Assembly (NCBI GenBank): GCA_965216565.1
Contig: OZ244170.1
Span: 2,272,001-2,336,000, forward strand
DNA: 64,000 nt
From: Bythopirellula sp.
Lineage (GTDB): Bacteria > Planctomycetota > Planctomycetia > Pirellulales > Lacipirellulaceae
Direction of reading: 5' to 3'
Below are positions 30,128 to 56,150 of this stretch, one piece after another (the stretch's first letter is position 1; each line of letters begins with the position of its first letter). Made by a program: the position numbers and the translations under genes. The notes below the pieces were generated by a model. That model had not been told where the DNA came from. It searched no databases and saw only the letters and a list, made by a program, of their open reading frames with translations.

Positions 30128-30250
30128 CGATTGCTTAGCCCGGCCGGTACTGCACGACCATTAGGCTGGTTGCCCCTTGGCCCTAAGTCAACCAGTGGCC
30201 ACAAGGCAATCGGTGACCCAAAGGCAAACTGGGCGAAATCAAGAAGTAAG

Positions 30251-30322
30251 CTAGCCCGCCAGGACTTGAACCTGGAATGAGGGAATCAGAATCCCTAGTG
30301 TTACCAATTACACTACGGGCCA
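30251..30322 (-). tRNA. tRNA-Gln (anticodon CTG)
   Basis: TGGCCCG/CGGGCTA acceptor, GTGT-AATTGGTA-ACAC D arm, AGGGA-TTCTGAT-TCCCT anticodon arm, CCAGG-TTCAAGT-CCTGG T arm; CCA not encoded. Confidence 0.95.
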
Positions 30323-50321: not shown

Positions 50322-51111
50322 CTAACAAATCCAACGATTAGAGGGACCAATTAGGGCCAGCAAGGGCAATAGAAGTATTCCTAGATTCGGCTCGGGCACT
50401 GCGGACAGGTTTGGAGTGAGCGGTATGCCCGTTCCAAATTCTTGCTGCCAGTCCAGAAAATCCAATCCATTGAGGTCCACTCCATAGCGAGCCTCCCAGC
50501 CAAGCGTTGGATGCGTGAGATCATTTGAATCGACATCACCATCGCCATCAAAATCCGCTTTTAAGTTCTGGAACAGAAATAATCCGCTGTCTCCATTGGT
50601 GAAGTCGACTGAAAACAGCAGATTGCCCAAATCGTTTAAGGCGGTAGGACTGCCGTCGTTTCCACCTGAGCCGCCTACGAAATCGAGTGACGCGATCGTT
50701 CGACCCGCCAGATTATCGCCCTCCTGGGCAATCAATACACCTGCTCCTCCTGAGTCCATCAGCCACAATCCCGAGTCGTTGCTGGCCCCCACCGCACCGC
50801 CAAGCTGTAAGGAAGCTTTCAGTGCGATCTGACCGGCAGAGTTTAATACATACTTTTCAAAATCGTCGAAGCTGGCCCCCACAATGCCAGGCACGCCTGC
50901 ACTTCCACTACGGGCAATTTCGTTTGATGTAACGCCATCAAACGACCAGATTCCACGGCTGTCGCTGGCTGTAACTCCTCCCACACCAGCCACAAGTTCA
51001 CCATGGACGATAACATCTCCGCTATCACTCAATAGAGGAGTCTCGAACGACTCAAAATCAGCATCTGCAATCCCCGGCACCCCTCCCGACCCCGTTTGTG
51101 CAATCCGTTCC
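50322..51111 (-). pseudogene. C-terminal fragment of an IS-interrupted PEP-CTERM protein (NxxGxxAF-like repeats, dockerin-like motif)
   Basis: LNSAGQIAL repeats, ADFDGDGDVD, VPEPN plus TM segment; joins in frame to 55011-56007. Confidence 0.85.
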
Positions 51112-51278
51112 GGCACTGGTAACCTTCCGTGTGGGATTTCTTCGTATTCCCCGTGATTCCCAGCCGTTGGCGGATTGTTTGCATTTTATTCCGCTAGCAA
51201 TGCTATAGTACCAATTGCGTTGGCCTGGACTTGGGGTGTCTATCACGCAACAATTCCAATCCGCTCTAACTCCCCAAC

Positions 51279-51311
51279 AAAAAAACCCGGTTGCCATTAC
51301 TGACAACCGGG
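51279..51311 (-). terminator. rho-independent terminator downstream of the 56-aa cargo ORF
   Basis: minus strand CCCGGTTGTCA-GTAA-TGGCAACCGGG-TTTTTTT. Confidence 0.8.
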
Positions 51312-51336
51312 CTCGATAGAACAAGTTTACTGCACT

Positions 51337-51507
51337 TTAGGCGTACTGGATCAGCTTCCATGTCACGGCTTTACCATTGTATGGGGGCATCACATTGCCC
51401 TCTGCAATGGGTGCAGTTGTGGATGGCGTACCTTCCACTTTCCACACTCCGCTCTCTGGACATCTTTGACCAGTAGTCGCTGTAGTGCCTATCGGTTTTT
51501 TGCTCAT
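51337..51507 (-). CDS. 56-aa small protein, YjzC-like (absent from ORF track)
   Basis: MSKKPIGTTATTGQRCPESGVWKVEGTPSTTAPIAEGNVMPPYNGKAVTWKLIQYA; AAGGAG RBS; own terminator. Confidence 0.7.
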   Translation of the reverse strand: MSKKPIGTTATTGQRCPESGVWKVEGTPSTTAPIAEGNVMPPYNGKAVTWKLIQYA

Positions 51508-51541
51508 CTCAAACAAACTCCTTTAAAAAAGAGGAAAAAAA

Positions 51542-51811
51542 GTGGCCAGCTTCGGACTAATAAAGCCCTTCGACATCGACCACGGGGAACTCGATGGACT
51601 CCGCCAACAAGATTGTTTTGTCCTTGGCTATGAACTTGCTCAGATCGACCAACTGCTAAAGCAGCCAGAGTCCATCAATAAACCAGTTCACGCTGACAAC
51701 AATAATCGTATAAAAAAAGCCTGTGTCGAATCTGGTCGCCAATACAGCTTGACGTGGATGTCCGGTGACTCGTCAGAGTCATGGATGCATCTTCAAGTTG
51801 ACGGCTTGTAA
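51542..51811 (+). CDS. hypothetical passenger protein (89 aa)
   Basis: GTG start with GAGG upstream; globular-looking composition. Confidence 0.55.
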   Translation: MASFGLIKPFDIDHGELDGLRQQDCFVLGYELAQIDQLLKQPESINKPVHADNNNRIKKACVESGRQYSLTWMSGDSSESWMHLQVDGL

Positions 51812-52092
51812 AACGACAACGACTCCCAAATCTAATAATTAAGCATCATTGCACGCATGCGCGGCAACTCTATCGGTGCTATTTGGGGATGCTGTGCCAG
51901 AGGCGGCGAGATGTGAATAACGTCCGCTACTCCATTAACAGTCAATTCCTACTCAGAATATACATAATTGGAACGCGGTCGCAAGGGGCAAAGCCAACTT
52001 GCGACCGCATCCAATAAAGACGTTATTCACGGGCAACTTTGTACCATTTTTCACAATGTCTCGTCAACTAGTTTTTGCACTATTCCGTGCTG

Positions 52093-53037
52093 TTAGTTTG
52101 CGGCATTTATCAGCAATTCTCCAACACCCCAGGCTTTTTCTGTCAAACCAGCGGCCATTGCTGGGGTCTCGCCTAGCGAGTCATGCTTGCGAGCAAAGTT
52201 GTAGTAGCAGAGATAGATTGCTTGCATGGCCTTGTGATGCTCTAGGCTCTTGCTGTGGGCATTCGTGAGACGGGTGAACCGTCGCAGATGCATTCTATAC
52301 TTCTGGTTGAAGGATTCGATATGGCTCGTGCAGACGTTCTCTTGCTTGGGGTTACCGTAAACAGCTTTCTTCTCAGAGTTTATTATCGTGGCCGGGCTGT
52401 AGCGGGTCTGCGTTTGGGTAGATGCGTAGTTCTTGACGATCTGGCCATAGTCTACCCGATTGCCGAAGGTGAACGGCACGTTGTTGGTGTAGGTCGATAG
52501 GCCGTCAGTGGACAGTTGGAAGCGGCCAGCGGTCGCACGGTCTAACTTCTCCAAGAATCGAACAGTGGTTTCGCGATCCCGGCCACCAATCTCATAGGCC
52601 AGAACCATTTTCGTATTCCGCTCGATTCCAAGAAACGTCCAGGAGTCGCCGTACTCTTCCCCGTAGCCATTGGCTTGACGGGTTTTTTCTTTACAGCCAA
52701 CGAAGCTCCAGATTTCATCGGCCTGCACGTCCTCAACTTCGATGTCGCGTAGGCTGTTCATCAGGCGTTCGCAGTTGTTGCCGACTGTGAGAATGAGATC
52801 GGCCAGAGTTTGACGGCAAAGGCCGGTCACACGCTGTACTGAGCGAATCGACATGCCCTCTAGCAACAGGGAGATAGCGGTAGCGGCTTGCTTGATATCG
52901 GTTCGCATGGCCCCTAGTGGGCTCTCTGGCTTGTCAACGAAAGTCTTGCCACACAGCGAGCACTTCAAACGGGGGTGACCTTGACGGTCTTTCCCGTGTT
53001 TGTGGCAATTTTCGTGTTGGCAGGCGGTTACTATCAT
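52093..53037 (-). CDS. IS1-family DDE transposase, single ORF
   Basis: Cys-rich zinc finger (C..C...KCSLC), HTH (GMSIRSVQRVTG), QADEIWSFV, STDG, TSHIE.FN, RRFTR.T..HSK, TPAMAAG. Confidence 0.9.
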   Translation of the reverse strand: MIVTACQHENCHKHGKDRQGHPRLKCSLCGKTFVDKPESPLGAMRTDIKQAATAISLLLEGMSIRSVQRVTGLCRQTLADLILTVGNNCERLMNSLRDIEVEDVQADEIWSFVGCKEKTRQANGYGEEYGDSWTFLGIERNTKMVLAYEIGGRDRETTVRFLEKLDRATAGRFQLSTDGLSTYTNNVPFTFGNRVDYGQIVKNYASTQTQTRYSPATIINSEKKAVYGNPKQENVCTSHIESFNQKYRMHLRRFTRLTNAHSKSLEHHKAMQAIYLCYYNFARKHDSLGETPAMAAGLTEKAWGVGELLINAAN

Positions 53038-53047
53038 TGTTCTCTCG

Positions 53048-53123
53048 TTGATTTCAGTATACTTTAATCAAACGAGGGCTGCAATAGATTAGGGTTGATT
53101 TTTGGAAACTTTTATCAAATAAT
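53048..53123. promoter_or_regulatory. divergent sigma70-type promoters overlapping two palindromic operators
   Basis: minus: TTGCAG(53084-79)-N17-TATACT(53061-56); plus: TTGATT(53095-100)-N17-AATAAT(53118-23); TTGATT-N12-WATCAA at 53048-53071 and 53095-53118. Confidence 0.6.
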
Positions 53124-53128
53124 CTGGC

Positions 53129-53320
53129 ATGGCTAAGAAAGCAACAAAACGGGGCGGAAAACGCCCAGGCGCAGGACGACCCGCCAAAGCCCCTAGCGAG
53201 AGGCGAGATCAGGTCTTTTCCGTCAAGCTGACTGCTGACGAGAAGAAGCTACTAGACGATACAGAGGCGCGCACGTGGGCACGCGACGTATTGCTACGAT
53301 CCGCTCGCAAGAGACAGTAA
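53129..53320 (+). CDS. small basic DNA-binding protein (RGGKRPGAGRP tail plus RHH-like core)
   Basis: VFSVKLT beta strand followed by two helices; divergent from the transposase. Confidence 0.7.
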   Translation: MAKKATKRGGKRPGAGRPAKAPSERRDQVFSVKLTADEKKLLDDTEARTWARDVLLRSARKRQ

Positions 53321-53321
53321 G

Positions 53322-53412
53322 CGGAGAGTGGGGGAGTCGAACCCATCCGATGGACGGACCCCTAGCACAGTGTATAAGGCTGCTGCATCAACCGAGATGC
53401 GGGCCGCTCTCC
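53322..53412 (-). tRNA. non-canonical 9/3 allo-tRNA-like gene, anticodon UAU
   Basis: GGAGAGCGG/CCACTCTCC acceptor (8/9), GCATC-TCGGTT-GATGC D arm, GCAGC-CTTATAC-ACTGT anticodon arm, GTCCG-TCCAT-CGGAT variable arm, GGG-TTCGACT-CCC T arm, G discriminator. Confidence 0.8.
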
Positions 53413-53499
53413 AGAGTGGCCCAAATTCAGATGCTAAAATCGCAATGTATTCATGGCGTCCACTAGACTTGAATACTGGAACAGAGGTTCACTGCAAGA

Positions 53500-53769
53500 T
53501 CAGGAGGGTAGCTCTGTGGAGATGTACGAACCTGTGATCCTCGTTATAAAATGCTCTCCCTGGTGTTCGCAGTAATCAACATTCAGCGCAGCAGTCCATG
53601 CCCTGCCTTCATGGGTGCATGTGATTTGAATGTGCACAGGAGATGATTTAGTTGTAGAAGAGATAACTGAGTCAATTCTTTCAGCAAAAATAATGCGGAT
53701 GGCCTCAGGCACATCCGCATCATTGCTAAAAAACTGCTCAATTGTCCTAAGAAGCCATTGAACGTTCAC
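53500..53769 (-). CDS. hypothetical passenger protein (89 aa), candidate toxin
   Basis: GTG start overlapping the upstream ORF by 23 nt; MNVQW N-terminus. Confidence 0.5.
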   Translation of the reverse strand: MNVQWLLRTIEQFFSNDADVPEAIRIIFAERIDSVISSTTKSSPVHIQITCTHEGRAWTAALNVDYCEHQGEHFITRITGSYISTELPS

Positions 53770-54025
53770 TCATAAATTCCTTTAAGGACGTAAATTCCTT
53801 TCGTTCAATGCACTCTTGGATGTCTTGAATCTCGCCAGTGTCTATTTCCATAGACTCAGAGAGAGACTCTAGAACCTTGTAGACACCAACATTGATGTCT
53901 TCTAGGGTCAAGTGACCCGTACCCGAAGACTGCATATATGCTTCCAGCCATGCCGTCAACTGGCGACGGATGGTTGGCTCATACGCGCGTAGGATTCTCT
54001 TGGCATCAAGTGGAATTGTAGACAT
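53747..54025 (-). CDS. hypothetical passenger protein (92 aa), candidate antitoxin
   Basis: helical, with acidic C-terminus EIQDIQECIERKEFTSLKEFMSE. Confidence 0.55.
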   Translation of the reverse strand: MSTIPLDAKRILRAYEPTIRRQLTAWLEAYMQSSGTGHLTLEDINVGVYKVLESLSESMEIDTGEIQDIQECIERKEFTSLKEFMSERSMAS

Positions 54026-54312
54026 TTTAATAACCCGTGAGAGATTGCTTACATGCTGTACCGATACTCCATTAACCGCTATCGGCTGCGGCACTCCCCA
54101 ATATTTAGAACGCAACAGACGCTCAAAAGTTCGCTAAACAAAGAAAAGCCCCGCAATGTATAAAGCTTAGGGACCATTGTCAATCCATAGTTGGTCGGCA
54201 CCCTAAGTCTAGAATGGCAAGCGAGTTGTGTCAATAATAGAGTTGGTGGATTGTGACAAATAAGTGATACATCCGACCGAAAGCATTGGCATAACAGGAT
54301 TTATTGCTAGCA

Positions 54313-54936
54313 CTATTCTCCCGCAGGGGTGCCAAGGTTACCACTACATATAGTCCAACCGGACACTTCGGATCGGATAAACCGCCGTGGATTTGCATGA
54401 AGGGATTTCCTGACGCACCGCAGAACCTTCCCCGGATCGTCCTCGGCACGACAGCCCAACGCCTGAATTGCTACTACTAGCTCTGCTGGCTTCATACCCT
54501 TCGACCCCTCTAGCACCTCTGCGATGACATCCGACATCGGCATCACGGCATAGGGAGGGGCGGCAGTGTCGTTGTCGAAAGTGACCCAGAGAATATGCCC
54601 CTTGTCGTCCTTGGCAATCCGCCTCAGTTCCTTGCGGTCGGCGAGGGTATAGACAGCAGCTTTGACGGACCCACGATTCCAGTGGCGTTCTGGCTCAGCA
54701 GCTTGGAGAATCTCAAGCACTTCACGATTCGAGAACGGACGATCACGGGGCATAAACTCACGCACCGCGTCTATGGCCGTCTTGCGAACTCTCAAGCCTG
54801 GTTCTGGCTCGTCGCCTAGTTCGCGTCGCAGTGAGTTGATCTTGTCGCAGGTGTCCCGGTACTCTTTGCGCGCCAGCGTGATTGCTTTATCAAGTTTTTC
54901 CGCTGCCTGTTTCTTTAGTAGTTCGTAGGCGTCCAT
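54313..54936 (-). CDS. hypothetical passenger protein: coiled-coil N-terminus plus one or two winged-helix-like domains
   Basis: PFSNREV...SVKAAVYTL...ELRR and GMKPAELV...VRKSL...FIR...W patterns. Confidence 0.6.
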   Translation of the reverse strand: MDAYELLKKQAAEKLDKAITLARKEYRDTCDKINSLRRELGDEPEPGLRVRKTAIDAVREFMPRDRPFSNREVLEILQAAEPERHWNRGSVKAAVYTLADRKELRRIAKDDKGHILWVTFDNDTAAPPYAVMPMSDVIAEVLEGSKGMKPAELVVAIQALGCRAEDDPGKVLRCVRKSLHANPRRFIRSEVSGWTICSGNLGTPAGE

Positions 54937-55010
54937 GCCCAAGATGGTAGAATGATCGGAGGGGCTAGCAAGTGGGTCGATTAAATCCCACACACTAGGT
55001 TACCAGTGCC

Positions 55011-56007
55011 TCCGTTCCCCAGTGGTTCCTGTATAGAGCCAGATGCCTTTGTCGTTGGTCGAGCTGATTGAGCCAGCGTGGGTAAGTTCTGAATAGAATG
55101 CCAACTGATCAATACCATTGATCACCGGGTCGCTCAATTCCGTAAAGTCAGTCGAGGCCACGCCTGGTACCGCACCAGCCCCTTGGCGAGCAATCACATT
55201 TCCACCCAACGGGGAATACTTCCAGATCCCGATGAAGTTGGTCGAATTGATACCACCCCCTTGTACTAAACTTGCTCGGAACGCAATCTGTTGATCGTCG
55301 TTGATGGTTGGGCCAACGAAATTATTGAAGATGCTTGATAGATCGGCAGCGACCGTTGTGTTCTCGCGTGCTAAAAGTGTCCCGCCCAATGCGTCGTAAG
55401 TCCAAATGCCACCATCGTCGTCTGAGGTTACGCCTCCCGTCGTGGCAAGCGAGGCATCGACTGCAATCTGGCCGATATCGGAAACATGTAAACTGTTCGG
55501 TAGGAAGTCAAATACTCCGTTAGTGACGCCAGGAGCGGCAGAATCCCCAGTACGGACGACAAGTGAATCGCTGCCAGAAAATCTCCAGATACCTTCACGG
55601 TTGGAAGCGTCCACCCCGCCACTGCCCGTCTCAAGAGAACCACGCACGAACACATCCCCAGCATTGCTAACAGAAAGGTCTCGAAATAAATCATAACTCG
55701 CACCGGCAACCCCTGGGACGTTTCCCGAACCCTGGCGGGCAAGCAACGAAATACTCCCTTGATCGAAGCTCCAGATACCATTTGCATCGCCAGATACGAC
55801 TCCGCCAACGCCGGTCTGAAGTTGTGCAGGGAAAGCAATGGTGCCACTATTATTGATGACTCCGGCTTCGAACGTATCAAATAACCCGCCCGCTACTCCC
55901 GTGGCCGCGTCGCCCGACACGGCAATTGTTGTTACCGTAGCGTGGATAGGTTCACTAAAATATGTAGATAACAAGAGAACGAGCCAAAGTGATTTAGAAT
56001 AAGACAC
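55011..56007 (-). pseudogene. N-terminal fragment of the IS-interrupted PEP-CTERM protein
   Basis: signal peptide; INNSGTIAF, INDDQQIAF and GIW repeats; truncated at the target duplication. Confidence 0.85.
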
Positions 56008-56150
56008 AAACGATCTCGCTTTGGGACAGACAACAAGATGAGTATAAGGTCGATATGTTCGAGGAATACCCAATCTAACGGCCAGCAGGAAGGAATGCAA
56101 AAATTTGCACTCAAATCGTGCGCATCGCTTTTACTGATGGGTAGATTCTC

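Follow-up and report, generated by a model that had tools for sequence, protein, structure and literature searches.

In a 64,000-nt window from the complete 5.2-Mb genome of a Bythopirellula species (contig OZ244170.1, positions 2,272,001 to 2,336,000; the whole stretch is called the window), we identified a 91-nt tRNA-like RNA gene with a UAU anticodon, showed that it is genuine and selectively maintained, and located it between the ends of an intact IS1-family insertion sequence (IS). Comparison with relatives from other genomes further demonstrated that the RNA gene is a fixed component of an IS1-family core consisting of a promoter-like motif, the RNA gene, a convergent ribbon-helix-helix (RHH) gene, a divergent promoter and the transposase. 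Codon counts lend indirect support to a link between the RNA and AUA codons, and we favor, tentatively and with somewhat less than even confidence, an anticodon-dependent role of the RNA at the AUA codons of the element's own genes.

53322–53412, minus strand: tRNA-like RNA gene, a Planctomycetota-type 9/3 allo-tRNA with anticodon UAU and G73, CCA not encoded (from its sequence, the tRNA-Sec model, our covariance model R1 and covariation).

The acceptor stem comprises 9 bp (1–9/82–90) with a single mismatch, C7·A, and is joined to a 3-bp T stem (69–71/79–81, loop UUCGACU) and the discriminator G91. The D hairpin pairs 13–17 with 24–28 (5 bp, loop UCGGUU), and the anticodon stem (30–34/42–46) ends in a closing C·A pair and presents the loop CUUAUAC; the base preceding the T stem is part of the variable hairpin (54–58/64–68). 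A sequence-only reading of the window had proposed a 9/3 allo-tRNA-like RNA with a UAU anticodon, U33, a G discriminator, one C·A mismatch in the acceptor stem and no encoded CCA. Its quoted minus-strand sequence and helices matched the window exactly, the 9 + 3 pairs are borne out by covariation in 66 sequences, and the absence of CCA was confirmed. A sixth helix, missing from its list, pairs CCC at 10–12 with GGG at 51–53 and encloses the D and anticodon hairpins. Host tRNA genes are likewise without an encoded CCA, ending in the discriminator base followed by C, and the missing CCA is therefore the local norm; the 3′ trailer of the RNA gene begins C-T, as in host tRNA genes. Acceptor pairs 1–6 and G73 are identical to those of the host tRNA-Ser(GCU).

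The earlier suspicion that standard annotators may miss the gene was likewise correct. ARAGORN called a tRNA-Gln at 30250–30322 as the sole tRNA gene of the window, and Rfam at gathering scores reported this gene alone, with no match at 53322–53412. A permissive local scan of positions 53000–53800 yielded a full-length match to tRNA-Sec (RF01852) at 25.8 bits (E 0.01; cut-off 47), and allo-tRNAs were first noticed likewise as sub-threshold matches to the tRNA-Sec model (Mukai et al. 2017, PMC5389517). The RNA sequence is single-copy in the genome by BLAST, and the 48 tRNA genes found there by ARAGORN include a tRNA-Sec located elsewhere. Neither the UCA anticodon nor an above-cut-off score of tRNA-Sec is present, nor are the 7/5 cloverleaf, short variable loop and A73 of canonical tRNA-Ile. 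The RNA has the 12-bp acceptor branch of allo-tRNAs, their long variable arm and G73/U73, and the UAU anticodon, destabilized stems and transposon or toxin–antitoxin gene neighborhood of the allo-tRNA(UAU) group; it lacks the tRNA-Sec-like D arm (long stem, tetraloop), the longer anticodon stem and, owing to the extra helix, a regular cloverleaf junction. Taken alone, the sequence does not fold with unusual stability (z −1.25; equaled by 19 of 200 shuffles), and hence the case for the RNA rests on its relatives.

Relatives were collected with a pattern scan over one genome per species that fixed GGAG, CTTATA, GGGTYCGANTCCC and CTCC and returned at least 120 loci, with flanks of 6 kb for the first 80 and 300 nt for the remainder. 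From 123 pattern matches we retained 61 with a global score of at least 24 against the window RNA, excluding two loci (L111 and L035) as other types. The covariance model R1 was built from alignment A1 with the helices of the sequence-only reading plus one more, and realignment produced A3, with 66 rows including the window. The relatives, at least 65 in number, derive nearly all from metagenome-assembled genomes of Planctomycetota (Pirellulales, Planctomycetaceae); members are 86–99 nt long and score 58–98 bits with R1.

Covariation among homologs, a check named by the earlier reading, came out in its favor, as did the covariance model built from the family itself. R1 scored the window RNA at 87.4 bits, and both-sided changes were present in 25 of 30 pairs of A3, in which 90.3% of the paired cells are indeed paired, as against 77.9% after shuffling. 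The covariation score was 0.354 compared with 0.134 for shuffled alignments (none of 500 as high; slid controls at most 0.089), in an alignment that was fitted to its own model. All six helices are backed by covariation. The helix 10–12/51–53 is paired in 97.4% of cells and carries double changes in all three pairs (variants TCC/GGA, CGC/GCG, CCG/CGG and CCA/UGG), as does the variable hairpin in all five of its pairs; at the ninth acceptor pair, G-C predominates (57 of 66 members; five double changes), and pairing of the T stem is complete (100% of cells). G-U pairs are frequent (one D-stem pair, for instance, is U-G in 30 of 66 members) and therefore fix the strand of the RNA gene. G73 occurs in 65 of 66 members and the D-hairpin loop UUGGC in 30 of 66, and UAU, U33, A37, the GG of the D loop and the T loop are kept in the family.

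R1 additionally found five members independently of the CTTATA pattern, four with UAU and one with UUA. All five retain G1-C72, G2-C71, A3-U70 and G73, and the T loops of L003, L129 and L058:1257 are degenerate.

L003:2818–2911 (C1:4676956–4677049, minus strand): second copy of the RNA in this genome, 75.5 bits, UAU, T loop GAGUUCACCUCUC.
L024:4898–4988: loop CUUUAAA, anticodon UUA.
L058:1257–1350: UAU.
L129: UAU, in a genome of the same class.
L151: UAU in the loop UUUAUAC, from a metagenome.

The second copy in this genome is older, has its own RHH-like open reading frame (ORF) nearby, and lies 373 nt upstream of a transposase homolog with 39% identity that is broken by two TGA codons; Rfam gave no match to this copy up to E 1, and R1 alone detected it. 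Among 150 further genomes of the phylum, R1 found no strong member beyond this genome, and its matches there at 47–51 bits resemble ordinary class II tRNAs by appearance. One Pirellulales genome holds two family members 1.1 kb apart, L024:4898–4988 and L024:6001–6092; the UUA anticodon of the former would read the UAA stop codon, and the latter has UAU and is followed by a transposase fragment alone. A kissing loop formed through the self-complementary UUAUAA was considered and dropped, because the base at position 38 is not constant (A 48, C 11, U 3, G 3).

The element that carries the RNA gene is an intact, recently inserted 3,899-bp IS1-family copy that splits a DUF7453 gene of the host, and the claim that the RNA lies within the precise ends of an intact, recent IS holds.

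51112–55010, minus strand: whole mobile element, 3,899 bp, defined by inverted repeats, target duplication and restored frame.
51112–51144: terminal inverted repeat at the low-coordinate end, 33 nt.
54978–55010: terminal inverted repeat at the high-coordinate end, 33 nt.
51104–51111: target-site duplication TCCGTTCC, left copy.
55011–55018: target-site duplication TCCGTTCC, right copy.
55000–56100, minus strand: N-terminal half of the DUF7453 host gene (Pfam PF24251, E 5.8e-42; frame restored).
50322–51116, minus strand: C-terminal half of the DUF7453 host gene (PF24251, E 5.3e-31; frame restored).

The 33-nt inverted repeats are 85% complementary, the duplication TCCGTTCC is a perfect 8-bp direct repeat at both ends, and in-silico excision of 51112–55018 (the element and one repeat copy) recreates a 633-codon frame. 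An IS1-type DDE transposase, terminal inverted repeats and a target duplication within the 8–9 bp of the IS1 family are thus all present. Four relatives (L009, L074, L066 and L061) have their own inverted repeats around the same gene order, spanning 3.6–4.5 kb. The core of the window's inverted repeat had no match in the other loci at up to two mismatches, and the ends of the relatives' elements were located individually.

Within the element, the RNA gene is embedded in the following core.

53464–53490, minus strand: promoter-like motif GAACC-N17-GTCTA, ending 51 nt upstream of the first base of the RNA.
53129–53320, plus strand: 63-aa RHH (NikA/CopG-like) gene, convergent, with its stop 1 nt from the RNA 3′ end.
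53056–53084, minus strand: sigma-70-like promoter TTGCAG-17-TATACT in the RHH/transposase intergenic region, 18 nt upstream of the transposase ATG.
52093–53037, minus strand: IS1-family DDE transposase, 314 aa in a single ORF, with an N-terminal zinc-binding domain (NF033558, NF050000, PF03400).

The window transposase scores 104.8 bits with NCBIfam NF033558 (cut-off 100), matches Pfam PF03400 at E 1.5e-8 and also matches NF050000. Among the 44 members with at least 890 nt of flank, 31 are followed on the same strand by an IS1 transposase ORF starting 120–800 nt downstream of the RNA, and two more by transposase fragments; of the remaining 11, two have a DDE_Tnp_1 transposase, one has a gene for a Tad/VWA protein, another lies close to an ArdC-like gene, and the others show no Pfam family. 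The IS does serve as a vehicle for the RNA gene, as had been proposed: the RNA accompanies IS1-family transposases sharing only 30–63% identity. In a tree of 122 transposases, the linked ones form two distant clades and scattered others.

On the opposite strand, 54 of the 66 members have an ORF of at least 35 aa whose end is no more than 12 nt from the RNA gene. These ORFs, of 50–75 aa, are situated between the RNA gene and the transposase, and their stop nearly always lies 0–3 nt from the RNA 3′ end. In an alignment of 42 members, from which 12 with long or doubtful N-termini were omitted, the Pfam assignments were NikA-like (23), RHH_1 (10) and TacA1 (8), and the profile matched the NikA structure 2ba3 at E 6.3e-5. 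The window copy, which alone has no Pfam match, is 86% identical to its counterpart in L074. Judging from this profile, the small convergent gene encodes a ribbon-helix-helix DNA-binding protein.

The RHH gene and the transposase point away from each other across a common 91-nt promoter region, in which a TTGAC-N17-TATAAT block ahead of the transposase is conserved (alignment of 13 spacers) and a promoter-like site also faces the RHH gene. Upstream of the RNA gene, GAAC[CGT]-N15-18-GTC occurs in 36 of 65 members, ending 34–93 nt ahead of the gene, compared with a mean of 1.5 (maximum 5) in shuffles and 2 for the reverse complement; by its consensus, the GAACC-N17-GTCTA motif resembles a promoter of the extracytoplasmic function (ECF) sigma type. 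In addition, the 30-nt leader upstream of the RNA often repeats the 3′ acceptor strand, and this copy can base-pair with the 5′ side of the acceptor stem. Of the 66 members, 29 have such a stem of 7 bp or more (mean 6.7, against 5.2 in shuffles), and some (e.g., L029, L061, L085, L028 and L027) reach 9–12 bp; that of the window has just 5 bp (GGGCC/GGCCC), no better than shuffles. The pairing could correspond to a competing fold of the RNA or, at the DNA level, to an inverted repeat recognized by a binding protein. A terminator between the RNA gene and the transposase, found in the window and in 10 of 25 spacers, was not counted as a signal because it lies inside the RHH coding sequence and its T run derives from Lys codons.

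That the RNA is a remnant of a captured tRNA gene, functionless today and decaying, is very unlikely. Such a reading could appeal to the mismatches in the acceptor and anticodon stems, to the degenerate T loops of L003, L129 and L058:1257, and to an Edaphobacter allo-tRNA, overlapping a transposon-related ORF, that has been called a pseudogene (PMC5389517). It is contradicted by compensatory changes in all six helices across hosts with transposases of only about 30% identity, by the fixed spacing to the RHH gene, and by the conserved upstream promoter motif.

The remaining genes of the element lie outside this core.

54313–54993, minus strand: 226-aa ORF that starts immediately internal to the inverted repeat; relatives have a weakly conserved counterpart in this position.
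53747–54115, minus strand: 122-aa cargo ORF, no family.
53500–53769, minus strand: 89-aa cargo ORF, no family.

Elements of relatives vary in the cargo that precedes the RNA gene, and the passenger ORFs belong to no family in Pfam, NCBIfam or PADLOC. These three resources likewise revealed no toxin family among the element ORFs, and the toxin half of a type II toxin–antitoxin pair is thus absent from their matches. The 122-aa ORF contains a stretch resembling HisZ, a HisRS-like regulatory subunit, which at 17.5 bits (E 0.0015) is far under the cut-off and probably a chance match. An 89-aa ORF at 51542–51811 on the plus strand, with a weak match to DUF3045 (E 0.003), falls within the ~980 bp separating the transposase stop from the low-coordinate repeat, a stretch absent in relatives such as L009.

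We then compared codon usage between the element genes and the host. Across 1,576 long ORFs of the host, ATA occurs 3.5 times per 1000 codons and makes up 7.0% of the Ile codons, placing it among the three rarest sense codons.

24 full-length transposases adjoining this RNA type: ATA in 74 of 398 Ile codons (18.6%), 9.5 per 1000 codons.
16 same-phylum homologs lacking such an RNA: ATA in 16 of 200 Ile codons (8.0%), 3.6 per 1000 codons.
RHH genes: ATA in 18 of 81 Ile codons (about 22%), 6.8 per 1000 codons.

Linked transposases thus use ATA ~2.6 times as often as their unlinked relatives (naive Fisher p 6e-4), and TTA, GTA and AGA/AGG show no enrichment in them. The window transposase has four ATA codons, including a tandem ATA-ATA at residues 218–219. 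At the corresponding RYSPAx-I-I site of the 24 linked genes, isoleucine is encoded by ATA in 14 of 14 and 9 of 9 cases, and the alternatives are ATG or GTN; in the other transposase clade, two or three ATA codons are retained slightly farther along instead, a few residues away. At another site, I-C-T-S, ATA alternates with ATC, ATT and GTN. Transposases beside other UAU tRNA-like types (L070, L183, L020, L031 and L032) are also rich in ATA, and that of L183 ranks first in ATA count among 80 metagenomic homologs collected by protein similarity alone.

The earlier reading had offered, as hypotheses, mistranslation of AUA, supplementation of AUA decoding, or a decoy or antitoxin RNA; the codon counts bear indirectly on the connection with AUA. 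Our tentatively favored reading would run as follows. The RNA would be transcribed from its own ECF-type promoter with a leader of ~45 nt, trimmed like a tRNA and given CCA as host tRNAs must be; it would then act through its anticodon on AUA, which element genes use two to three times more than host genes, and this element-borne AUA reader would tune or gate the synthesis of the transposase. Separately, the RHH protein may repress the divergent promoters.

Several observations weigh against a decoding role. The extra helix departs from every tRNA known to decode; acceptor pair 7 is mismatched in 44 of 66 members (C·U 31, U·U 7, C·A 5, C·C 1), and the closing pair of the anticodon stem is unpaired in 28 of 66, the window included. 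For most members, CTTATA, GGAG/CTCC and GGG/CCC were fixed by the search pattern, and hence the invariance of these columns is by construction. Six allo-tRNA(UAU) species were inactive as amber suppressors in E. coli (PMC5389517). The host has tRNA-Ile(GAU), three CAU tRNAs and tilS, and is therefore independent of this RNA for reading AUA; a canonical UAU tRNA was not found in it. Moreover, two transposases (L163 and L176) have ATA-ATA at the RYSPAx-I-I site with no tRNA-like sequence nearby, their loci of 4.8 and 6.1 kb giving nothing by R1 with filters off or by Rfam and containing no CTTATA, and L130 is rich in ATA with no tRNA-like RNA. In a sign test on the 122-transposase tree, taking three or more ATA codons as the criterion, five independent contrasts divided into 2.9 with the association, 0.1 opposite and 2.0 ties (median p 0.25). 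The direction is consistent and the contrast test lacks power; the link has exceptions and, with phylogeny taken into account, does not reach significance.

Alternatively, the RNA could belong to a regulatory or processing module that does not decode, in which the tRNA shape serves processing enzymes alone. Transcription from the upstream promoter would pass through the fold into the convergent RHH gene, the fold providing RNase P/Z sites or stability for an antisense RNA, and activation of the promoter would lower RHH levels and thereby derepress the transposase. The strictly convergent RHH gene, with its stop 0–3 nt from the RNA 3′ end in nearly all 54 cases, favors such a module, as do the divergent arrangement of RHH and transposase over 91 nt, the conserved promoter-like motif and the ability of the leader to pair with the 5′ side of the acceptor stem (over 7 bp or more in 29 of 66 members). 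The failure of published allo-tRNA(UAU) species in translation tests (PMC5389517) and the mismatches at acceptor pair 7 and the anticodon-stem closing pair point the same way. However, a non-decoding module leaves unexplained why UAU, U33, A37, the D-loop GG and the T loop are retained and why ATA is specifically enriched in the element genes, and the leader–acceptor stem of the window is at shuffle level. We regard this explanation as less likely than not, though not far behind the favored reading.

Clues to the amino acid that the RNA would carry point in two directions: its acceptor end resembles that of tRNA-Ser, yet the ATA sites of the transposase behave as hydrophobic Ile/Val positions. 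Were the Ser-like acceptor and variable arm to direct charging by seryl-tRNA synthetase (SerRS), the RNA could act as a missense tRNA that inserts Ser at AUA, either harming the host, in the manner of an addiction or toxin-like system held in check by RHH, or limiting the element's own transposase. G1-C72, G2-C71, A3-U70 and G73 are invariant even in the pattern-free members, and the first six acceptor pairs equal those of the host tRNA-Ser(GCU). In E. coli, 9/3 and 8/4 allo-tRNAs insert Ser regardless of anticodon (PMC5389517; 2020 review), and two of the six UAU variants were lethal (PMC5389517). Ser-type class II tRNA-like genes, with the anticodons GAU, UAA and CUA, also occur in related IS1 elements, and 8 of the 42 RHH members resemble TacA-type antitoxins. 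Nevertheless, the first codon of the ATA pair never encodes Ser in over 100 homologs inspected by eye (V, C, I, M, L and F occur), and ATA at the I-C-T-S site is exchanged for ATC, ATT and GTN; Ser insertion would therefore damage the element's own transposase. Neither the family searches nor PADLOC found a toxin partner gene among the element ORFs, and an Ile-to-Ser change at 3.5 codons per 1000 would be costly to the host of a fresh transposition. Taken together, a serine-charged missense tRNA appears improbable. The variant in which AUA read as Ser would yield an active transposase was not favored, as no homolog inspected by eye has Ser at the main ATA site.

Returning to an anticodon-dependent role at AUA, the individual steps can be combined into a bolder joint claim that we consider unlikely as a whole: an ECF-sigma-induced allo-tRNA(UAU) would gate the translation of a transposase that retains rare AUA codons in its catalytic region, allowing host stress to switch on transposition by way of a tRNA, and IS1-family elements would be natural carriers and users of allo-tRNAs. 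Part of the same claim is that anticodons UAU, UUA, UAA, GAU, CUA and UCU would each be matched to the codons of their own element. The match of the other anticodons to element codon counts is suggestive only: UCU in L205 accompanies six AGA codons (third of 80) and UAA in L155 four TTA codons, and L166 and L211 show no match.

Other tRNA genes were also observed beside IS1-family transposases. In soil metagenomes, irregular tRNA genes of several kinds lie directly upstream of homologous transposases: Ser-like class II bodies of 90 nt at L155:2786–2875 (UAA), L151:310–399 (GAU) and L179:498–587 (CUA), a tRNA-Arg(UCU) at L205:1580–1653, and an 89-nt UAU type at L183:1982–2070, on the opposite strand and like L070. 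These irregular tRNAs fit the varied anticodons reported for allo-tRNAs. Upstream of distant homologs, L124:1125–1193 and L134:860–927 are acceptor/T-arm minihelices of 68–69 nt with CCA-like tails, one of which matches the tRNA-like domain of the tmRNA model at 25.8 bits. Ordinary tRNA genes (Pro, Ser, Trp and Thr) occur a few hundred bases from distant IS1-family transposases in L124, L126, L133 and L138, which could reflect insertion of elements beside tRNA genes.

These results place one structural type of allo-tRNA in a defined, intact transposon of a complete 5.2-Mb genome, where it comes with a constant gene order, candidates for a promoter and a repressor, and a specific codon signature in the adjoining transposase. 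What was a metagenomic curiosity is thereby turned into concrete questions about the production and charging of the RNA and about the role of ATA codons and the anticodon in transposition. If the decoding link is true, a transposon would control itself through its own tRNA, and aberrant tRNAs, possibly with codon reassignments, would have a route for spreading among genomes.

Among known systems, the element resembles IS1 in its DDE transposase, which scores above the NCBIfam cut-off, its terminal inverted repeats and its 8-bp target duplication. Classical IS1 is ~0.77 kb long and has two frames joined by frameshifting; unlike it, the window element is 3.9 kb long and combines a single 314-aa ORF with cargo ORFs, an RHH gene and an RNA gene. 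It resembles the long single-ORF 'ISMhu11' subgroup of ISfinder. The bldA tRNA-Leu(UAA) of Streptomyces, paired with TTA codons, and phage tRNAs that match phage codon usage are canonical tRNAs with demonstrated decoding. The present RNA would share with them the dedication of a tRNA to a rare codon over-represented in a gene set, although here the decoding is inferred and the structure aberrant. Similarly, lysidine-modified tRNA-Ile2 (TilS) and the rare tRNA-Ile(UAU) target AUA, and the U36-A37 context of our RNA suits readers of ANN codons. Unlike these bacterial AUA decoders, it departs from the 7/5 geometry, carries G73 in place of A73, possesses a long variable arm and escapes detection by both ARAGORN and the tRNA model.

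The closest relatives in the literature are allo-tRNAs. Mukai et al. (2017) described an allo-tRNA(UAU) group with destabilized stems, odd junctions and a remark on a 'five-stem junction', and suspected a link to transposon-related genes (PMC5389517); a 2020 review of allo-tRNAs makes the same points. The family RNA shares with this group the 12-bp acceptor/T branch, UAU, a G or U discriminator, a long variable arm, stem-destabilizing mismatches and irregular junctions, and the 3′ end of the window RNA is nearly identical to one published sequence (PMC5389517). The published UAU species are mainly of the 8/4 'major (delta 9-10)' type on Acidobacteria-like soil contigs, and published allo-tRNA hosts are Clostridia, Proteobacteria and Acidobacteria (PMC5389517), whereas the window RNA is 9/3, comes from Planctomycetota and adds the helix 10–12/51–53. 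With the translation-active 9/3 allo-tRNA-Ser of Silvibacterium bohemicum, which inserts Ser in E. coli, our family has 9/3 geometry, G73 and a Ser-like acceptor in common (PMC5389517). The D stem of that RNA is long and tRNA-Sec-like, with a tetraloop, and its junction is regular; our family differs in its 5-bp D hairpin, 5–6-nt loop and extra helix. Three type-specific 12-nt motifs and the string 'Planctomyc' were absent from the supplement text of PMC5389517, a comparison covering text and not figures, and the RHH and IS1-transposase synteny, the promoter motif and the ATA bias did not appear in the sections consulted of that paper or in the 2020 review. Nothing pertinent emerged from searches of later literature that paired allo-tRNAs with transposons or combined tRNA-like genes with insertion sequences and AUA codons. 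The kind of RNA is already known and its transposon link was guessed earlier; what appears to be new is the Planctomycetota 9/3 type with its sixth helix, the core of RNA, RHH and transposase genes, the promoter motif and the ATA signature.

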